Of a stretch of 37,620 bases of DNA, positions 12,185 to 35,487 are shown in pieces. The notes beneath the pieces were generated by a model, which was not told the origin of the DNA, searched no databases, and saw only the letters and a list, made by a program, of their open reading frames with translations. A program made the translations under genes and the position numbers. This stretch comes from a virus, in IMG/VR virus record IMGVR_UViG_3300025000_000248; one strand, written 5' to 3'. Position 1 is the first letter of the stretch. Each line of letters starts with the position of its first letter.

Positions 12185-12517
12185 CTAGGTGGCAGGAGTA
12201 AAGTCCTGGACTTCTACTTGTAGGTCACCCCACCAGAAGCCATAATCAGTTAGGAGCACTGAATTGTCTTGAAGTAGATTGTGCTCTTCAATACTTGGCA
12301 CAAAATCCCTATCTTCTGAGTATCTCACCCAAATTTCAGATATTTGAGCTAGATCCTTCCTCATGCTAGGGTGTGGCATGCTTTGTGGTATTAGTGCTAA
12401 AATAGTATTATCTGTGGATTCAAGAAACACATGATCTACACCCTCCCCTACGGCCTCTAGGGTAGAAATTATAGCCTGTTGGGTAGTGAGATTCTCCAGA
12501 TTGATCACTGCAATCAT
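12185..12517 (-). CDS. Hypothetical protein
   Basis: ORF of 110 aa. Confidence 0.45.
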   Translation of the reverse strand: MIAVINLENLTTQQAIISTLEAVGEGVDHVFLESTDNTILALIPQSMPHPSMRKDLAQISEIWVRYSEDRDFVPSIEEHNLLQDNSVLLTDYGFWWGDLQVEVQDFTPAT

Positions 12518-25818: not shown

Positions 25819-26055
25819 CTATTTATTTTGTCTAGCGCACACCTGTATAATCAGATTTATGAGAAGGTCAAATTTATTACTGCTTATTTCTACCATACCA
25901 CTTTCACTGGGCCAAGAACCACTACTATCGGGAAAGCACCAAGTGCAATACAACCACTCAAATAACACGTACTTATCTTTATGATTGGCAAAATATTTAT
26001 AAACTTCACCTTCACCATTGCACTCTTTACAGTCTTGCTTAGCATCCTCTTGCAT
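25819..26055 (-). CDS. Small Cys-containing hypothetical protein
   Basis: ORF of 78 aa with TAAGGGG ribosome-binding site. Confidence 0.45.
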   Translation of the reverse strand: MQEDAKQDCKECNGEGEVYKYFANHKDKYVLFEWLYCTWCFPDSSGSWPSESGMVEISSNKFDLLINLIIQVCARQNK

Positions 26056-27026
26056 TGTATACCCCTTAATTAAACAAGGTAGCCAAGGTGTACAATATCT
26101 TGGCTACCTATTTGCGACCTTTAGGGTAAGTCGCCCACCCCAGTAATTATTAAGCATGTCGTTAGTGCGTGCATGCCCAGAGTTTCATTAACGCTAGAAA
26201 CTCTCTGAGTACTACTGAAAACTCATAAACTATGCGACCGTTAAAGGACAACGGTGAGTCCTAGGGATGAACAATAGAGCTTGATCAGAGCTGTTTCTGT
26301 CCCTACTCACAATACTAGAACATCTAACATATTCCATTAGGTAGCCACCTGAAGACTGCTTATACCTAGTACTATGAGTAAGGACAGTGTGGGAATTCTA
26401 CCCACGTTGGTAGAGTGCACTCCTGCCAACCGAGTCTAACAACTGTACTTACCTCAGCTTTGTCATACATGGGACTAATACCCAACGGATGGTTCCCATT
26501 GTGCTAGGCAGCTACCCCTCTCACACAGTTTCGAGTAACGGACTAAAACTGTCCAGAACCAACAACACTCGTAAACAAACGGCACTGTTTTTGACAGGGT
26601 ATGCTCCCCCTGTTAGAATAAAAAGAATTTAGCCATGCACATGTGATACACTACCCTAAGGTTGCTACTCACAATCATAAATGCTTGCTTTATCCACTTC
26701 TACTCTAATCCACACACGCTGTGTTATAATGATGCTAACAGATCATCATAAGCCAGAAACAGCACACAGGGATTAAGGTAGAATTAGGGGCCAGAGACAG
26801 GACTTTATACCTGCATTCCTCACGCTTTTAGGCATGTGCTTTTGGATTAAAGCTACTCTGGCATGTAAAATGAGGGCATAGATTTGCACCATGCACACCC
26901 TGCTAGTTTTCGGTTTACCTTGTGATCAGCCCTTACCCCACCTTAAACAAGTATGGTACCATTAAGGTTTCTTGCACGACTTGTTCACTCTAAAGCGTCT
27001 ATCCATTCCGCCACCCCACAGAATAT
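26056..27026. other. About 970-bp ORF-free segment (no ORF of 60 aa or more in six frames) with balanced GC and many local stems: candidate structured ncRNA(s) or degenerate tRNA-like elements. It begins with the palindrome GGTAGCCAAG-11 nt-CTTGGCTACC (26078-26108).
   Basis: Absence of ORFs in the six-frame track plus visible stems. Confidence 0.4.
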
Positions 27027-27307: not shown

Positions 27308-27384
27308 TGGTAGGCCACATAGGATTTGAACCCATGACTCCCGAGATATAAGCTCGGTACTCTAACCAACTGAGTTAGTGGCCT
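27308..27384 (-). tRNA. tRNA with anticodon UAU (Ile, AUA-reading) and encoded CCA
   Basis: Folded by hand. Acceptor AGGCCAC/GTGGCCT is 7/7, D arm ACTC/GAGT, anticodon arm CCGAG-CTTATAT-CTCGG, T arm ATGGG-TTCAAAT-CCTAT, 3' end ACCA. Confidence 0.7.
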
Positions 27385-27388
27385 ATTA

Positions 27389-27463
27389 TGGCGGCAAGGT
27401 GTAGGGATCGCACCCACGTTAAGAGTTTTGGAGACTCCTGTTCTACTACTGAACTAACCTGCC
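27389..27463 (-). tRNA. Probable tRNA-Trp (anticodon CCA) with encoded CCA and atypical T arm
   Basis: Acceptor GGCAGGT/CCTTGCC is 6/7, D arm GTTC/GAAC, anticodon arm GGAGT-CTCCAAA-ACTCT. T loop is TGCGATC (G55, unusual). Confidence 0.5.
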
Positions 27464-27832
27464 ATTTGCAGTTAGAGTGAGTTTCGCTTGACACAGCTAC
27501 TACTCACCCTTTTCCACCTAGGAACTGAATAACACAAGGTGTCAGTTTATAAAGATTGCCGTCCCCCTAGGCTAAGTCAGTTGCCCTGCGTGGTTCTACT
27601 GACAATGTACGGATAGTTCCTTCTCAGTTCCAGTTTCGTCGTTTACTGCTAGCAACTATCAAGCGTTAACTCTCGCCCTATTATGGCGACAGCACGTCAT
27701 TAGGGTAAACCTAGAGCTTGTGGCCCTAACCAACTCCATCGCTTTGTGAATGTCTACGGGGGACTAGCCTGTGCAAGACGCTTGAAGTCATGGAGTTGGG
27801 TAGGGGCATATGCCCCTTGAACTATCTGCTTA

Positions 27833-28877: not shown

Positions 28878-29035
28878 TTAATGTATGTGCAAAGGGTAGG
28901 CTAGGAATCGAACCTAACTTCAACCGCCACTTATGTGTAGTAACTGATACTCCCAAGAGAGTATGTAGGAGTCGAACCTAACTTCAGAGCCTCTCACATA
29001 TAGTAGTTGCTACCCTTAACTATGATACCAGATTG
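28878..29035 (-). tRNA. Two tandem tRNA-like elements sharing TGAAGTTAGGTTCGA(C/T)TCCTA T-arm motifs. Full cloverleaves could not be resolved by hand.
   Basis: Canonical GGTTCGANTCC T-loops on the minus strand at about 28895-28905 and about 28968-28977. Acceptor pairing was not found. Confidence 0.3.
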
Positions 29036-29255
29036 TGGGAATTGTAGAAGGCTGGTGATAGAGATCCTTACGCATAAGGACTTATTATGCCATACACTTA
29101 ACACTTTCACCCACCACTGACTAGGTCCAGCTTAAAATAGTACTCATGTTGTCTAACATGATTCCTCGCCTACCAAGCCGTCCTACTTAACGCTGTACAA
29201 CATTTATAGGCCCAATTCTTCTCGGCTTTTCACTGGGCAGTCGCTAGACTGCTTA

Positions 29256-29459
29256 ACCTGGTATCATAATTAAAGGTAGGCATATGCCTCCCAAGATAAA
29301 TATGCGGGGGTAAGGATTTGCACCTTACATGATAGGAGTTTACCCTCGATTAAGCCTATCCCTCTGTCTGCAACCCTCTTAAGGACTTAGGTTTATTTAT
29401 GCAAACAATCGGGAGCGTCTACCTTTTCCGCCACCCCTGGTATCATAATTAAAGGTAGG
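29256..29459. repeat. 24-bp direct repeat CCTGGTATCATAATTAAAGGTAGG at 29256-29279 and 29436-29459, plus an inverted near-copy at 29009-29032
   Basis: Seen in sequence. Confidence 0.8.
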
Positions 29460-29525
29460 AAGTCGGTGGAATCTCACCCTCCAAGGTTTGCACCTTTGCG
29501 TATTCACTACACTACTTCCATATGT

Positions 29526-29602
29526 TGGCAGTACATACAGGAATCGAACCCGTGTTACTAGCTTGACAGGCTAGCGTCCTATAACCCCTAGGAGAACGTA
29601 CC
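29526..29602 (-). tRNA. tRNA-Asp (anticodon GUC) with encoded CCA
   Basis: Anticodon arm CTAGC-CTGTCAA-GCTAG, T arm ACGGG-TTCGATT-CCTGT, acceptor GGTACGT/ATGTACT (2 G-U pairs), 3' end GCCA. Confidence 0.65.
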
Positions 29603-29609
29603 AAGTTAA

Positions 29610-29951: not shown

Positions 29952-30498
29952 ATTGTCACCACCATTCTGTTAGTTATTGATGAGCACTTGTGGGCTTTCC
30001 ACCCACTCGTCGGTTTGTGGCTTATAAGTCCACCATAACTCGTCTCTTACGTCAGGTTGGTTACTGACAGCCTTACGGACTACACTCAGTTAGCCTTTAC
30101 ATCAGGGGAGTGTAGCGTTATTTTGTCCACGAACTATCGAACTACTGTCTTGACCACATGGGCATTTTAGGGCTTGCACATAGGCATAGTTGCTTAAGCT
30201 CAACTTAGCTCTTTGACCTGCAACCACAGGCTACAGAGTACCTATATAGCCTTTCTCGGGCAGTAGTTCTCTTTATGCTCTACTATGAAGCACCTAATCC
30301 CTACACCTCTGTGCTTCGTGCCACGTATCCCGACACAACGTGGTTCCCCTCGAATATCCTTGGAAGGTTCAGAGGGAGTCAGGAGGTCTACTAAACATTT
30401 AGTGTGTCAATAAAACACTCCTCTGCTTTTCGTCCTCACCGTCGTGCCCCTGAACACTTTGAAAAAACCACCCATCCAAAAGTTTTCTCTTGTTAAGC
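29952..30498. other. About 550-bp ORF-free segment between the HIRAN gene and the sigma gene: candidate structured ncRNA
   Basis: No ORF of 60 aa or more; GC-balanced; several inverted repeats. Confidence 0.35.
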
Positions 30499-31038
30499 TC
30501 AATATATATCTGGGCCATATTTCTCCACCAGTTTGCTGTACTCTTTAAGATATTTGATGCTAAGAAAGTAAACTCTAGCTTGTACCCTATTAACTGAAAC
30601 CCCCTCTTCAGCAGCTAGCTCTCTTAAAGATTTCTTGTGTATTATGAGTCCTTCCATTAACTTCCGGTGTTTCTCCCCCAACACTATGCTAGGATCAATA
30701 CTCATCATGTCTATAGCACGCTGTATATCCTTCTCATTATAACTCTGCTCATATGCAGAAAAATCCTCTTCACATGTCTCCTTATTTACCACTCTCAAGT
30801 ATTTTGTGATATGGTGGTATACTCGGAATTCCAACATCTTCTTAATATAATATGGAAAGTCCACTCCACGTTTAGGGCTATACTCATTGACCAATTGAAT
30901 AAATAACATGTTTACTGCTGCAAATAAGTCTTCCCTATCTGCCCCGTTATGCATCATGTGAACAAATTTTTTAGTCATGGCTTTACGGAGTGGCTCATAA
31001 TTTCTAAACAGTGTTTCAGGATCTAACATTAAACTCAT
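30499..31038 (-). CDS. Phage-encoded sigma-70-family sigma factor (regions 2 and 4 only)
   Basis: Region 2-like DLFAAVNMLFIQLVNEYSP...FPYYIKKMLEFRV and region 4 HTH SLRELAAEEGVSVNRVQARV. Confidence 0.7.
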   Translation of the reverse strand: MSLMLDPETLFRNYEPLRKAMTKKFVHMMHNGADREDLFAAVNMLFIQLVNEYSPKRGVDFPYYIKKMLEFRVYHHITKYLRVVNKETCEEDFSAYEQSYNEKDIQRAIDMMSIDPSIVLGEKHRKLMEGLIIHKKSLRELAAEEGVSVNRVQARVYFLSIKYLKEYSKLVEKYGPDIY

Positions 31039-31337
31039 TTATCCATCACCAACCCATACTCACCTGTTATTATAGAGGAATATAGTATACATGTATCAAT
31101 TCTACCGGAGTTCTCAATGCCATAATACCCATAGGACACAACTAAAAAATGGCTGTATACCTTTTCTATCCTAACCACCCTTGATTCTTGATCATGAGGA
31201 TTGAGCATCAGTGCTCGTACTCCCACCAACTTCTGGTACTTGTTTTGCATGTTTCTAAACATGAGGGTAGCCTCAGTTGCCTGAGGCTTTTTTGCTTTCT
31301 TTTTATGTTCTTCCAGTTTTTCTAGGAATTGTTTCAA
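31035..31337 (-). CDS. Hypothetical protein
   Basis: ORF of 100 aa with a 4-bp overlap with the sigma gene. Confidence 0.45.
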   Translation of the reverse strand: MKQFLEKLEEHKKKAKKPQATEATLMFRNMQNKYQKLVGVRALMLNPHDQESRVVRIEKVYSHFLVVSYGYYGIENSGRIDTCILYSSIITGEYGLVMDK

Positions 31338-32632: not shown

Positions 32633-32713
32633 TTAAATTAATCCCACATATGAATTTTTACTCTTAAAGGTAAAAAATGATAGGATCAGTAAGTCTTGAG
32701 CTGGCTCTCTTTT

Positions 32714-32742
32714 AATTTCTCATGAAACGGACGAAAAATCAA
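32714..32742 (-). promoter_or_regulatory. Sigma-A-type promoter P10 (degenerate): TTGATT-N17-GAAATT with CATGA -16 region
   Basis: Shares the TAATTTCTCATGA downstream block with P1-P9. Confidence 0.45.
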
Positions 32743-32747
32743 GCCCC

Positions 32748-32975
32748 CTATAGGAGGCTTGATACAAATAATTTCTTTGTGGCACAACTAGCACTTTTCA
32801 CTGTACACTCTGCATCCCTTCCCTTCCTTACTAAGTTCCTTACCTCCGCGTTATATAACCTTCTACCACATTTCTTGCAGTAAGGTAGGATTTTATTATG
32901 AACATGGTTTCTCCTGAATTCCACTTCAGATCTATCTGCGTGCTCGAATCCACAATTCCTGCACCTTTCTAGCAT
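32748..32975 (-). CDS. Small Zn-ribbon protein (CRNC...CKKC)
   Basis: ORF of 75 aa. Confidence 0.45.
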   Translation of the reverse strand: MLERCRNCGFEHADRSEVEFRRNHVHNKILPYCKKCGRRLYNAEVRNLVRKGRDAECTVKSASCATKKLFVSSLL

Positions 32976-33908
32976 TTAATCCTCCCCCAGCAATCTAAAA
33001 TATGTCATCCAGCTGGTAAAGTTAGACAGGATTGACACGAATTCTTTGTGCATGAAAAAATCCTTTATATCCTGTATTCTTATTTCATGCACTGGGGTGA
33101 TCATCTGCAATATGTCTTCTTGAATTGCATCATAATTCACATAGCCTAAATTCATAAGCTTGTGGTTCCTGCCTATGATGGCTAGATTCTCAGGCTTAAA
33201 AATAGCAGCAGTTCTAGACTTTAACATGAGTTTGTCTTTGTCTTTAAACATTATGTCAATGTGACCATAGGTATCCATAAGTTTTTTAGCCGTAACCTCT
33301 CCTATGCCAGGAACACCCCCAATATTATCAGAGTCATCTCCTAGTAAGGATCGATAGCCAAGATAACACTTTTGGCTAATGCCTTTAGTCTTGACCTCAA
33401 AATTACTAGGAGTTACAAGCAGATCCTTATACAGATCAAATACAGACACTTCTTCATTAATCAGTTGTAACATATCTTTGTCTGAGGAGATTATGGTTTT
33501 TTTACCTTGTAATAAACAAGCTGTGGCGTAAACAAGGTCATCGGCCTCCCAACCTTTTACCTTTAAAGAATTAATACCTAGAGCAGGCAGAAATTTGTGT
33601 ATTTCATTCATTTGCCACAAATACTCTTCAAATTTCAATATTTCTTCTGGAGTTCTATCATCCCTAGTATGATCCCGGTTCATTTTATACCCAGGATACA
33701 ATTTCATGCGTTCTTCTGATTTACCATAGTCCCACACCACTACCATACGAGTAGCTTCTTGAAACTTTTCAAGATATCCCTTTAAGGAATTAAGAGTACC
33801 CAATATAGTCCCTGTAGGTTCCCCCTTACGGGAGCGGAGCTCCCCTTGGGGAGTGTGGTAGGCTCGGCTGGCAACATTATTTCCATCAATTACTAAAGTA
33901 TAAGACAT
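32976..33908 (-). CDS. 5'-3' exonuclease / flap endonuclease (T4 RNase H / Pol I N-terminal domain family)
   Basis: LVIDGNNVASRAYH, acidic metal-site residues, and GIGEVTAKKL helix-hairpin-helix. Confidence 0.9.
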   Translation of the reverse strand: MSYTLVIDGNNVASRAYHTPQGELRSRKGEPTGTILGTLNSLKGYLEKFQEATRMVVVWDYGKSEERMKLYPGYKMNRDHTRDDRTPEEILKFEEYLWQMNEIHKFLPALGINSLKVKGWEADDLVYATACLLQGKKTIISSDKDMLQLINEEVSVFDLYKDLLVTPSNFEVKTKGISQKCYLGYRSLLGDDSDNIGGVPGIGEVTAKKLMDTYGHIDIMFKDKDKLMLKSRTAAIFKPENLAIIGRNHKLMNLGYVNYDAIQEDILQMITPVHEIRIQDIKDFFMHKEFVSILSNFTSWMTYFRLLGED

Positions 33909-35200
33909 TATACTACCTCCTTAACAAATTGTAGAGATATGTCATACTCAGGCATATTTTTGGTTAACTCAGCTATTCGGAGCAAATCTTCCATAGCTGC
34001 CTTGAGATTAAAACCCTCTCTGCGTATGACAAGATTGAGCGCATCAACTTCTGTAGACTCTCTTGGCTTCCCCACCGTCTTACTTTCAATGGCCTCAGGT
34101 CTAATTTCTGTATCCTCAGCTTTTACCTTACTATTCCAAACATAAATAGAAGATATTGGTACACTATCCTCTGGAAATTCTACCCTGAGGACGTTAAAAA
34201 CCTCATTACTACTCCTCCCTTCCCGTATAAGTTGCTTAGCTCTTTCCTCTGCCTCTACTGAATATTTTCTAGACCTTTCAGGGCCAGGTAAACCTAATTC
34301 CCTCCTAGCCTTATTAATCCAGTTAAATATAGAAGCTGGGGGTATGCCTATTGAAGAGAACTCTTCTTGGATTACCTTAACTATTTGCCCTGCCTTCATG
34401 TCAGTTTTTGCTAGTTGTTTAGCCCTATCTCTACACTCCTCTGGGTATTTTCTTGACATTTTTGCCTCCTTTGCCTTGTTTATGGACATTTGAGTCATTC
34501 CCTGTTCACTACCATATTGTCTGGCATATTCATAAAGCTGCCCCTCTAATCTACCTGTTTGGACTTGACTCAATTTTAAAGTCTTACCAGCTTCTTGCTG
34601 AGATTTACCTTCCACTATTCGTAATTGATATAAGGTTTTAAGACGAGGATCTAGATGACTAACAAAATCATTTATGATCAGAGATTCATCATCATCCAGA
34701 TGCTTAAGAGATAAAGTATCAGCAAAAGTGAGGGTACCATCCTCGGTATCTAAGGGTCTATCCAAGCTGTCAATTAACGATAACTTGTTAGATTTAACAA
34801 TTGTATTTACTTCTTCTTCAGTTAGCCCTGCTTTCTCCATCATTACTTCCACAGGAGAACCACTACTTACACCTGCTTTTCTTAAAATTGACTTCAGTGC
34901 CATTACTTCTCTTCCAGCACGTATCATAGGGCTAAAATCTCTAAGATGTCTTAATATCTCCCCCTTAATAACTGGCACAGCATATGTGCTAAACATGACA
35001 TCATATTTAGTAGGATCAAATTTTTTGTAGGCTTTTGTTAGACCCATATAAGCTATACTCAGGATGTCATCTTTATCAAAGGAGTTAGCTGGATTACTGC
35101 GAACGGCTTCAATAAATGGCCACGCCACAAAGCTAGCTAACTTCATGTTAATTCTAAAAAATTCATCAACTGTGCCCTCTAAGTGTGGGTTACGCTCCAC
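33908..35200 (-). CDS. Sigma-70-family sigma factor (SigF/G-like regions 2-4) fused to a C-terminal duplicated approx 50-aa domain. Start refined to GTG 35200.
   Basis: DILSIAYMGLTKAYKKFDP (2.1-2.2), FSTYAVPVIKGEILRHLRD (2.3-2.4), and region 4 LYQLRIVEGKSQQEAGKTLKLSQVQTGRLE. GGAGGAGGG ribosome-binding site 6 nt before GTG, overlapping the upstream stop (TAGAGTG). Confidence 0.75.
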   Translation of the reverse strand: MERNPHLEGTVDEFFRINMKLASFVAWPFIEAVRSNPANSFDKDDILSIAYMGLTKAYKKFDPTKYDVMFSTYAVPVIKGEILRHLRDFSPMIRAGREVMALKSILRKAGVSSGSPVEVMMEKAGLTEEEVNTIVKSNKLSLIDSLDRPLDTEDGTLTFADTLSLKHLDDDESLIINDFVSHLDPRLKTLYQLRIVEGKSQQEAGKTLKLSQVQTGRLEGQLYEYARQYGSEQGMTQMSINKAKEAKMSRKYPEECRDRAKQLAKTDMKAGQIVKVIQEEFSSIGIPPASIFNWINKARRELGLPGPERSRKYSVEAEERAKQLIREGRSSNEVFNVLRVEFPEDSVPISSIYVWNSKVKAEDTEIRPEAIESKTVGKPRESTEVDALNLVIRREGFNLKAAMEDLLRIAELTKNMPEYDISLQFVKEVV

Positions 35201-35201
35201 T

Positions 35202-35429
35202 CTAGCCCTCCTCCCCTGAGAGACGACCAGATAGTGGCCCCCATGCGTTGCACCCCACAAATAGGTACCCATATGGTTTGTCATTTTTATACACCGTATT
35301 TAAAACATATGTTCCAGGCACTTTTATTACTTTTGGGTTAAAAAGCTTATGAAGGTATCTATAAGGAGATTTTCTACCAAATTCTATGATCTCATCAGTA
35401 GTTTCAAATGAAACTAGCTCCCTAACCAC
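35202..35429 (-). CDS. Hypothetical protein translationally coupled to the sigma gene
   Basis: GAGGGGGAG ribosome-binding site; stop overlaps the sigma GTG start. Confidence 0.4.
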   Translation of the reverse strand: MVRELVSFETTDEIIEFGRKSPYRYLHKLFNPKVIKVPGTYVLNTVYKNDKPYGYLFVGCNAWGPLSGRLSGEEG

Positions 35430-35453: not shown

Positions 35454-35487
35454 AAAAAAGGCAGGATGTCAAATCTTGACTCCTGCC
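35454..35487 (-). terminator. Terminator GGCAGGA(T)GTCAA-ATC-TTGACTCCTGCC plus TTTTTT on the minus strand
   Basis: 12-bp stem with 1 bulge, plus a U-run. Confidence 0.8.

Follow-up and report, generated by a model that had tools for sequence, protein, structure and literature searches.

A predicted SigF/G-like sigma factor with tandem C-terminal helix-turn-helix repeats encoded by an SPO1-like phage

Introduction

Sigma-70-family factors are, to our knowledge, thought to read promoters via their regions 2-4 only. In the virus record IMGVR_UViG_3300025000_000248, a stretch of 37,620 nucleotides (nt) that is called the window throughout, the gene 33908..35200 encodes a putative sigma factor of 430 amino acids (aa) that continues for about 200 aa beyond region 4. 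Which kind of domain forms this extension, and does it read DNA, regulate the sigma factor or act as a protein of its own? The original prediction for this locus had described two phage sigma factors, the larger one with a duplicated C-terminal domain that could tether RNA polymerase to DNA or to a partner, or could be a fused anti-sigma module. Here, we find that the extension consists of two predicted helix-turn-helix (HTH) domains and a tail, and that it looks like the fused form of a sigma-associated module present in many phages. The protein genes, domains and translation signals described below all lie on the minus strand of the window.

The large sigma factor and its reading frame

The gene 33908..35200 is predicted to encode a complete sigma-70-family initiation factor with sigma2, sigma3 and sigma4 intact at aa 11-228. 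Region 2 (aa 11-89; 34934..35170) holds the conserved FSTYAVPVIKGEILRHLRD motif and is delimited by Pfam Sigma70_r2 (PF04542, 33.9 bits against a cut-off of 24), by the alignment of the PDB entry for SigF (1L0O_C) to aa 12-225 with an expectation value (E) of 1.9e-16, by helices of the AlphaFold2 (AF2) model and by invariant columns. Region 3 (aa 97-140; 34781..34912) is present between regions 2 and 4 according to the SigF alignment and to three AF2 helices at aa 97-108, 117-124 and 128-140; Pfam Sigma70_r3 gives no match in the protein. Region 4 (aa 168-228; 34517..34699) carries the SQVQ..R.E recognition helix. It is supported by AF2 helices and by the alignments with SigF and with NCBIfam TIGR02937, which scores 64.3 against a cut-off of 42.9 over aa 13-222, and the two alignments cover region 4.2 to aa 222-225. 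The Pfam models for region 4 are sub-threshold (PF08281 with 18.4 against 25.7, another with 13.2 against 24.1); the orthologue P0002 passes PF08281 at 27.1 bits. The AF2 model has a mean predicted local distance difference test (pLDDT) score of 80.7, places the three sigma domains within the boundaries given above and retrieves sigma factors in holoenzyme structures in a Foldseek search. The profile hidden Markov models (HMMs), the SigF alignment and the model together bear out the earlier reading of a SigF/G-like factor with regions 2, 3 and 4, with region 2 above its curated cut-off and the TIGR02937 alignment running through region 4.2.

The group-3 layout sigma2-sigma3-sigma4 and the two conserved signatures, FSTYAVP.I.GEI.R.LRD and SQVQ..R.E, are common to this protein and to SigF and SigG of Bacillota (1L0O chain C, TIGR02980). 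In contrast to these cellular factors of about 240-260 aa, to which it is about 30-35% identical, the phage protein adds a C-terminal extension of about 200 aa. The best NCBIfam subfamily is SigB/F/G (TIGR02980) with 98.8 bits, far under the cut-off of 234.35, and the equivalog models also stay under their cut-offs (spore_sigF 87.2 against 321.45, SigG 67.5 against 372). The protein is accordingly classified as SigF/G-like group-3 by resemblance, and not as a SigF or SigG orthologue by curated criteria. The phage family phrog_351 ('RNA polymerase sigma factor') matches with E 8.6e-39, aligning aa 8-306 to profile positions 502-800, so that the match reaches through the first of the HTH repeats. 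The phrog_351 profile itself continues through a post-sigma4 HTH.

The longest open reading frame (ORF) spans 33908-35284, and its candidate ATG at 35284 lacks a Shine-Dalgarno (SD) site. Database gene calls in three other metagenome assemblies choose the GTG at 35200, which gives 430 aa (P0001) with a stop codon at 33908-33910. Residue 1 of this version is aligned with the N-termini of seven homologues, which follow the pattern M-[DEK]-x-N-[PYH]-[HY]-L. Based on the homologue N-termini and the independent gene calls, we assign the GTG at 35200 as the true start, as originally proposed. At the upstream junction, GGGGAGGAGGG at 35216-35206 is followed by TAG at 35204-35202, A at 35201 and GTG at 35200-35198. 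The SD site of the sigma gene is therefore located within the last codons of an upstream 75-aa ORF (35202..35429), and the GTG begins 1 base past its stop. The string TAGAGTG had been read correctly before; the distance of four bases then given applies to the first base of the stop codon, not to its end.

The tight coupling to the upstream gene that had been suggested is found here as a 1-nt gap and, in L001, a groundwater phage contig of about 142 kb carrying the orthologous sigma, as an 11-nt overlap of the upstream gene and the sigma start. The 75-aa ORF is called as a gene in three assemblies, and the first 57 aa of its product are 39% identical (E 1.8e-10) to the gene preceding the sigma in L001. 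Given this homology, we regard it as a real gene. The 75-aa protein has no family match in Pfam or PHROGs and no similarity to the sigma-flanking genes of Bacillus phages or to CampHawk_152/153. Between the preceding HD phosphohydrolase gene and the 75-aa gene, a terminator-like hairpin with a T-run can be read from the sequence at 35454..35487 and is kept in L001; after it, there is no space for a promoter ahead of the 75-aa gene. Across the 75-aa gene and the sigma gene, only one nucleotide, the cause of V131A, distinguishes the window from three independent assemblies, and we conclude that the fused reading frame is not a sequencing artefact.

Tandem HTH repeats in the C-terminal extension

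The extension contains two repeats of about 55 aa, each modelled confidently by AF2 as three helices (pLDDT 83-97). Repeat 1 (R1; aa 249-305, 34286..34456) is net basic and has its helices within aa 254-301 (pLDDT 83-94). Repeat 2 (R2; aa 310-364, 34109..34273) has its helices within aa 315-364 (pLDDT 87-97) and matches phrog_17205 at 4.8e-5. Comparison of aa 249-308 with aa 310-369 yields 21 identical residues out of 60 (35%) in a gap-free alignment with E 1e-11. The orthologue P0002, which is 54% identical to the window protein, contains both repeats; R1 is 54% identical to its R1 counterpart and R2 60% identical to its R2 counterpart, while paralogous repeats share 31-37%. Since the orthologous copies are closer than the paralogous ones, the duplication is old and both copies have been maintained. 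The duplication noticed at the outset is thus a real internal duplication.

A profile built from the repeats and related sequences matches the HTH structure 2JN6 of the IS3-OrfA type with E 1.9e-5, which indicates a fold type common to both. The same profile gives weaker matches to Sleeping Beauty PAI, IS629 OrfA and resolvase HTHs. Pfam HTH_Tnp_1 (PF01527) scores 14.8-15.2 bits on the repeats, under its gathering cut-off of 24.1. Shared with 2JN6 are the three-helix HTH, a basic arm RKY(S/P).E and a tryptophan in the third helix. We assign the repeats as predicted homeodomain-like three-helix HTH domains of the IS3-OrfA/mariner transposase type. The layout of two such HTHs joined by a short linker is likewise found in Tc1/mariner transposases (Tc3 1U78, Mos1 3HOS, SETMAR 7S03), which use it to read about 20-26 base pairs (bp). 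Recognizable anti-sigma domains would be, for example, an ASD/zf-HC2 domain or a SpoIIAB-like kinase. Searches of Pfam, NCBIfam, PHROGs and PDB sequences with the full protein or the C-terminal region gave no similarity to an anti-sigma domain, which leaves the previously considered fused anti-sigma module unsupported.

R2 is followed by a disordered linker (aa 365-383) and a C-terminal tail (aa 384-430; 33911..34051) for which AF2 confidence is low to moderate. At the other end of the module, exactly at the junction of sigma and HTH, an in-frame AGGAGG (34470-34465) is followed after 5 nt by an ATG (34459-34457, Met248), together spanning 34457..34470. It is the only such SD site among the 151 internal in-frame ATGs in 61 minus-strand genes, and the position of Met248 coincides with the N-termini of stand-alone modules in other phages. 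P0002 does not keep an ATG at this position; it has a single ATG close by, preceded by a weak SD site. For this reason, a fusion relic is likelier than a conserved internal start.

The HTH module in other phages

An HTH(+tail) module accompanies SigF-like sigma factors in many phages, and it does so in four arrangements: fused, split, separate and tripled. SigF-like sigmas with one to three HTHs and a tail occur in Bacillus Herelleviridae, in a Microcystis phage and in metagenomic phages. Fused sigma-HTH-tail proteins are SBSphiJ6 gp192 (429 aa), 278BB001_101, P59_168, Moonbeam165 and a 480-aa protein of Microcystis phage MaeS. In phiNIT1, the module is split between orf330 (sigma-HTH) and the following orf137 (HTH-tail), which has its own SD site. 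In Bcp1, BCP8-2, BM15, Bc431v3 and Xoo-sp15, an extension-free sigma is followed after 1 nt by a separate HTH-tail gene of 163-166 aa. The metagenomic protein P0008 has three HTHs and a tail. The family phrog_8794 (159 positions, annotated 'sigma factor') corresponds to the extension alone as a stand-alone module, with phiNIT1 orf137, Bcp1_201 and BCP8-2_124 as examples. A tblastn search with the extension of SBSphiJ6 gp192 found 61 phage records, all but one of them Bacillus phages (60/61).

The window protein has the same layout, with an HTH unit directly C-terminal to a SigF-like phage sigma. Its repeats align with the HTH units of these phages and beat 997/1000 and 1000/1000 shuffles against their profile. 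The tail was compared with 12 phage tails that share the pattern ..L.KN(L/M)P...(V/I)SL.., with a weak hhalign P of 0.012 over 37 in-register columns. The phage tails are expected to follow a strand-helix-strand pattern, and AF2 models the window tail as helices with low confidence. The tail is possibly the same as that of the Bacillus-phage sigma modules. Similar to the Herelleviridae 'sporulation-like' sigmas of phrog_351 (SBSphiJ6 gp192, 278BB001_101, phiNIT1 orf330, Goe3 g157, Moonbeam 164/165 and the Bcp1 sigmas), the window protein links a SigF-like sigma to HTHs, a low-complexity linker and a short C-terminal tail. In contrast to them, it has two HTHs in tandem, each with a 4-residue turn insertion (EEF..G(I/V)P), its gene is flanked by the HD and 5'-3' exonuclease genes within a replication module and is coupled to an unrelated 75-aa gene, and the identity is about 24-33%. 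As judged from these comparisons, the window protein looks like a fused, two-HTH form of the sigma and HTH-tail pair. That the genes of an otherwise separate pair occur fused is a Rosetta-stone type argument for a joint function of module and sigma. With its tandem fused HTHs and its new genomic position, the protein is a new structural form of a phage sigma class that is already present in databases and in cultured phages. The recurrent association of a SigF-like phage sigma with an HTH(+tail) is annotated in databases, and no description of it was found in the literature searched.

An exhaustive phmmer search of 1.84 billion representatives with the C-terminal region gave P0002 as the only strong match. 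The ten weak matches are proteins of 2-8 tandem HTH repeats, which point to the type of repeat and not to a function, and include a stand-alone two-repeat protein, P0085, which is found on a contig of only 2 kb. A homologue-database search with the 183-aa C-terminal region, repeated with an alignment of five extensions, returned nothing, and that database thus offered no basis for a deep alignment of the module.

Some relatives show arrangements of their own. In a sister group of the large sigma, the metagenomic homologues P0003-P0007, region 3 is wholly missing and one post-sigma4 HTH is kept; these proteins end with a conserved EPEP.W motif and a helix, and P0004 and P0007 have Cys-rich insertions. 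Moonbeam (L009, 2384-5123) has two tandem SigF/G-like sigma genes, both with C-terminal HTH extensions (353 and 514 aa). In Caeruleovirus-type phages (L015-L018, L020), a tandem SigF/G-like pair is followed by a separate HTH-tail gene, an 86-aa gene and a ParM-like gene, and together these form a conserved operon.

The second sigma factor and the genomic setting

The second sigma factor of the window (30499..31038) is a protein of 179 aa with regions 2 and 4, as had been proposed. It is matched by Sigma70_r2 (29.8 bits) and phrog_1025 (3.9e-30) and, over 98% of its length, shares 52% identity with the gp34 orthologues found in SPO1-like phages. Directly upstream, and overlapping its start by 4 nt, is a gene for an SPO1 gp33-like protein of 100 aa with a TTG start (31035..31337), recognized over aa 1-93 by PF25742 Phage_Gene33 with 77.8 bits against a cut-off of 27. 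The same arrangement of a Gene33 protein and an overlapping gp34-like sigma is known from SPO1, and the small sigma is assigned as an ordinary orthologue, the gp34 half of the SPO1-type gp33/gp34 late pair. Database assemblies give the product of the gp33-like gene a length of 75 aa. The Gene33 profile starts at residue 1 of the 100-aa TTG version, and this longer form, with a GGGGGA SD and overlapping the ligase stop region, is probably the correct one.

The gene order in the window is gp32-like single-stranded DNA-binding protein, HD phosphohydrolase, 5'-3' exonuclease, small zinc-ribbon gene, DNA ligase, gp33 and gp34. It matches the SPO1-like phage CampHawk, where ligase, gp33 and gp34 follow each other in the same way, and the phage is assigned as SPO1-like, of the Herelleviridae type. 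There is one difference: two unrelated small genes in CampHawk stand against the 75-aa gene and the large sigma here, which form a cassette between the HD phosphohydrolase and the 5'-3' exonuclease. No homologue of SPO1 gp28, the middle sigma, was found in the window, and the large sigma was rejected as a gp28 candidate, as it is not detectably gp28-like. From the CampHawk comparison, the presence of gp33/gp34 and the lack of gp28 likeness, we conclude that the large sigma is an add-on cassette and most likely a third sigma.

Between the 5'-3' exonuclease and the ligase, 32748-32975 encodes a zinc-ribbon protein of 75 aa that is rich in cysteine (CxxC...CxxC). Its L001 counterpart is 62% identical, and the sole Pfam match of the window protein is a weak one to a TiaS zinc ribbon. 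In CampHawk, this place is taken by an unrelated gene for a membrane-like product of 88 aa.

Proposed mechanism and alternative explanations

We propose that a sigma gene became fused with the gene of the module, which would have left the SD and ATG of the module at the junction, and that the HTH was duplicated long ago. In the holoenzyme, sigma2 and sigma4 would read the -10 and -35 elements as usual. A flexible linker of about 25 aa from the end of sigma4 would allow the HTH pair to reach DNA upstream of -35, roughly from -40 to -65, where it could work as an activator or UP-element reader built into the sigma, sharpening and lengthening recognition for a subset of phage promoters. Expression of the sigma would be coupled to the 75-aa gene and would depend on read-through of the hairpin at 35487-35454. 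That the HTH pair contacts DNA upstream of -35 in the manner of the bipartite transposase domains, and so adds a specificity element, is the likeliest of the mechanisms considered, with odds that we judge to be close to even.

Several observations weigh against this proposal. DNA binding by the HTH pair is a prediction, and R2 and the tail are net acidic. The AF2 interdomain geometry is not confident, with a predicted template modelling score (pTM) of 0.33, and Foldseek matches of the C-terminal model are not significant. Neither the repeats, the tail nor the 183-aa C-terminal region matches phrog_8794 at E up to 10. The homology of the tail reaches only P of about 0.01-0.02, with an HMM score that is also reached by 70/3000 shuffles. 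Neither a cognate promoter nor an upstream element emerged as a candidate in the window, which holds only early and replication genes and no late genes. Finally, in published tests, the related phage sigmas SP10 g120 and Goe3 g157 had little influence on transcription of the host, and the extension was not considered (PMC9429907).

The extension could instead be regulatory, with the HTH pair and tail binding sigma domains, RNA polymerase or a partner and causing auto-inhibition, activation or dimerisation. Among the regulatory devices of extracytoplasmic function (ECF) sigmas, C-terminal extensions rank second in frequency; they are described as sensory or regulatory and not as DNA-binding, and those of ECF41, 42, 56, 238 and others modulate activity (PMC7826278). 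The acidic R2 and tail would fit such a role, the conserved tail could serve for interaction or dimerisation, and the occurrence of the module as a separate protein beside sigma genes is compatible with a sigma-binding partner. However, the ECF sigmas are group 4 factors without sigma3, and their known extensions are SnoaL-like, TPR, Cys-rich, DUF1835 or transmembrane domains, none of them an HTH (PMC7826278), whereas the window sigma has sigma3 and HTH repeats that resemble bona fide DNA-binding HTHs with basic arms. Together with the lack of anti-sigma similarity and an AF2 model in which the repeats are not docked on the sigma, this makes a regulatory extension rather unlikely in our view. 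The internal SD site suggests another possibility, namely that the gene yields two products, the 430-aa sigma and a free 183-aa HTH-HTH-tail protein from the ATG at 34459, which would act as a transcription factor in its own right or compete with the fused form. This is the place where stand-alone modules begin, separate-gene versions are common, and P0085 exists as a stand-alone two-repeat protein. Yet the position is not kept in P0002, the spacing of 5 nt is shorter than the 7-9 nt typical of genes of this phage, and the site could be a mere fusion relic; we therefore doubt that a second product is made.

The readings above would also be compatible with a mainly host-directed role, in which the protein is an auxiliary 'sporulation-like' sigma aimed at SigF/G-type promoters of the host and manipulates dormancy, the extension being secondary. 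The best matches are indeed the SigB/F/G, SigF and SigG models and clostridial SigF and SigG proteins, expression of related phage sigmas in the host lowers sporulation (PMC9429907), and the cassette is added to an SPO1 backbone that already has its own late sigma. The score of 98.8 bits against the SigBFG cut-off of 234 and the identity of about 30-35% speak against close equivalence, and sporulation genes responded little or not at all to the phage sigmas that diverge most from SigF/G (PMC9429907), so that we hold this role to be quite improbable. A joining of separate sigma and HTH genes by a frameshift or a lost stop codon in this assembly only is extremely improbable and was rejected. It would account for an SD and ATG at the junction of a module that is a separate gene in many phages. 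However, the same continuous ORF with one substitution is present in the window and three independent assemblies, P0002 is likewise fused (on several contigs of about 142 kb), and cultured phages also have fused forms. The suggestion that the repeats might belong to a separate, frameshifted ORF is thereby effectively refuted.

If the HTH pair does contact DNA, the protein would supply a naturally occurring case of a sigma that has gained a further domain for reading promoters. It would bear on how large Bacillota phages separate their own transcription from the host SigF/G regulons and could be of use in orthogonal expression systems. A more far-reaching version, which we put forward as a speculation that is unlikely to hold in full, would be a self-contained sigma-activator recognizing a three-part promoter (-10, -35 and an upstream element of 20-25 bp bound by the transposase-like HTH pair), with the internally initiated free HTH-HTH-tail protein competing for that upstream element as a timer or attenuator. 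If this were true, the Herelleviridae HTH module would represent an undescribed mode of promoter recognition by sigma-70-family factors. The question can be tested in the tractable Bacillus subtilis phages phiNIT1, SP10 and Goe3. The accessory 'sporulation-like' sigmas of SP10, Goe3 and Eldridge are a parallel to the large sigma and were studied without reference to the extension, and those of SP10 and Goe3 are already cloned (PMC9429907).

Promoters and non-coding segments in the window

The SPO1 middle (AGGAGA-N17-TTTNTTT) and late (CGTTAGA-N18-GATATT) consensus sequences are absent from the window, and relaxed matches to the SPO1 promoter consensus are terminator hairpins only. Nine near-identical strong sigma-A-type promoters are present on the minus strand, each with ccTTAcTTGACTt, a spacer of 17 nt and TGnGAnAAT/TATAAT with an extended -10. 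Their TTGACT elements start at 24490, 19137, 15865, 14075, 12119, 11248, 7890, 5390 and 3866. Many of them are followed by a GTGGGG...CCCCAC 5' hairpin, and they lie ahead of clusters of small genes in the manner of the early/host-takeover region of SPO1. None is located in the replication module at 25-37.6 kb, and none near the sigma cassette.

Upstream of the DNA ligase gene, a terminator hairpin directly precedes and overlaps a conserved sigma-A-like promoter (TTGATT, 17 nt, TGAGAAATT) on the minus strand at 32713-32763, and the combination is kept in L001 at about 12300-12350. Many minus-strand genes share an extended ribosome-binding motif, AGGAGGTATGT(N2-3)ATG, with conservation beyond the SD core.

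About 2.7 kb of the minus strand is non-coding in four blocks (25819-27026, 27336-27832, 28957-29609 and 29952-30498). Four tRNAs are found there: Ile-tat (27308-27384), Trp-cca (27389-27463), Asp-gtc (29526-29602) and a marginal one at 26789-26862 (29.4 bits). The blocks also hold several further T-arm/acceptor-like segments and a repeated CCTACCTTTAATTATGATACCAGG (at about 29440 and 29270), and these extra non-coding segments may be interrupted tRNAs or other structured RNAs.

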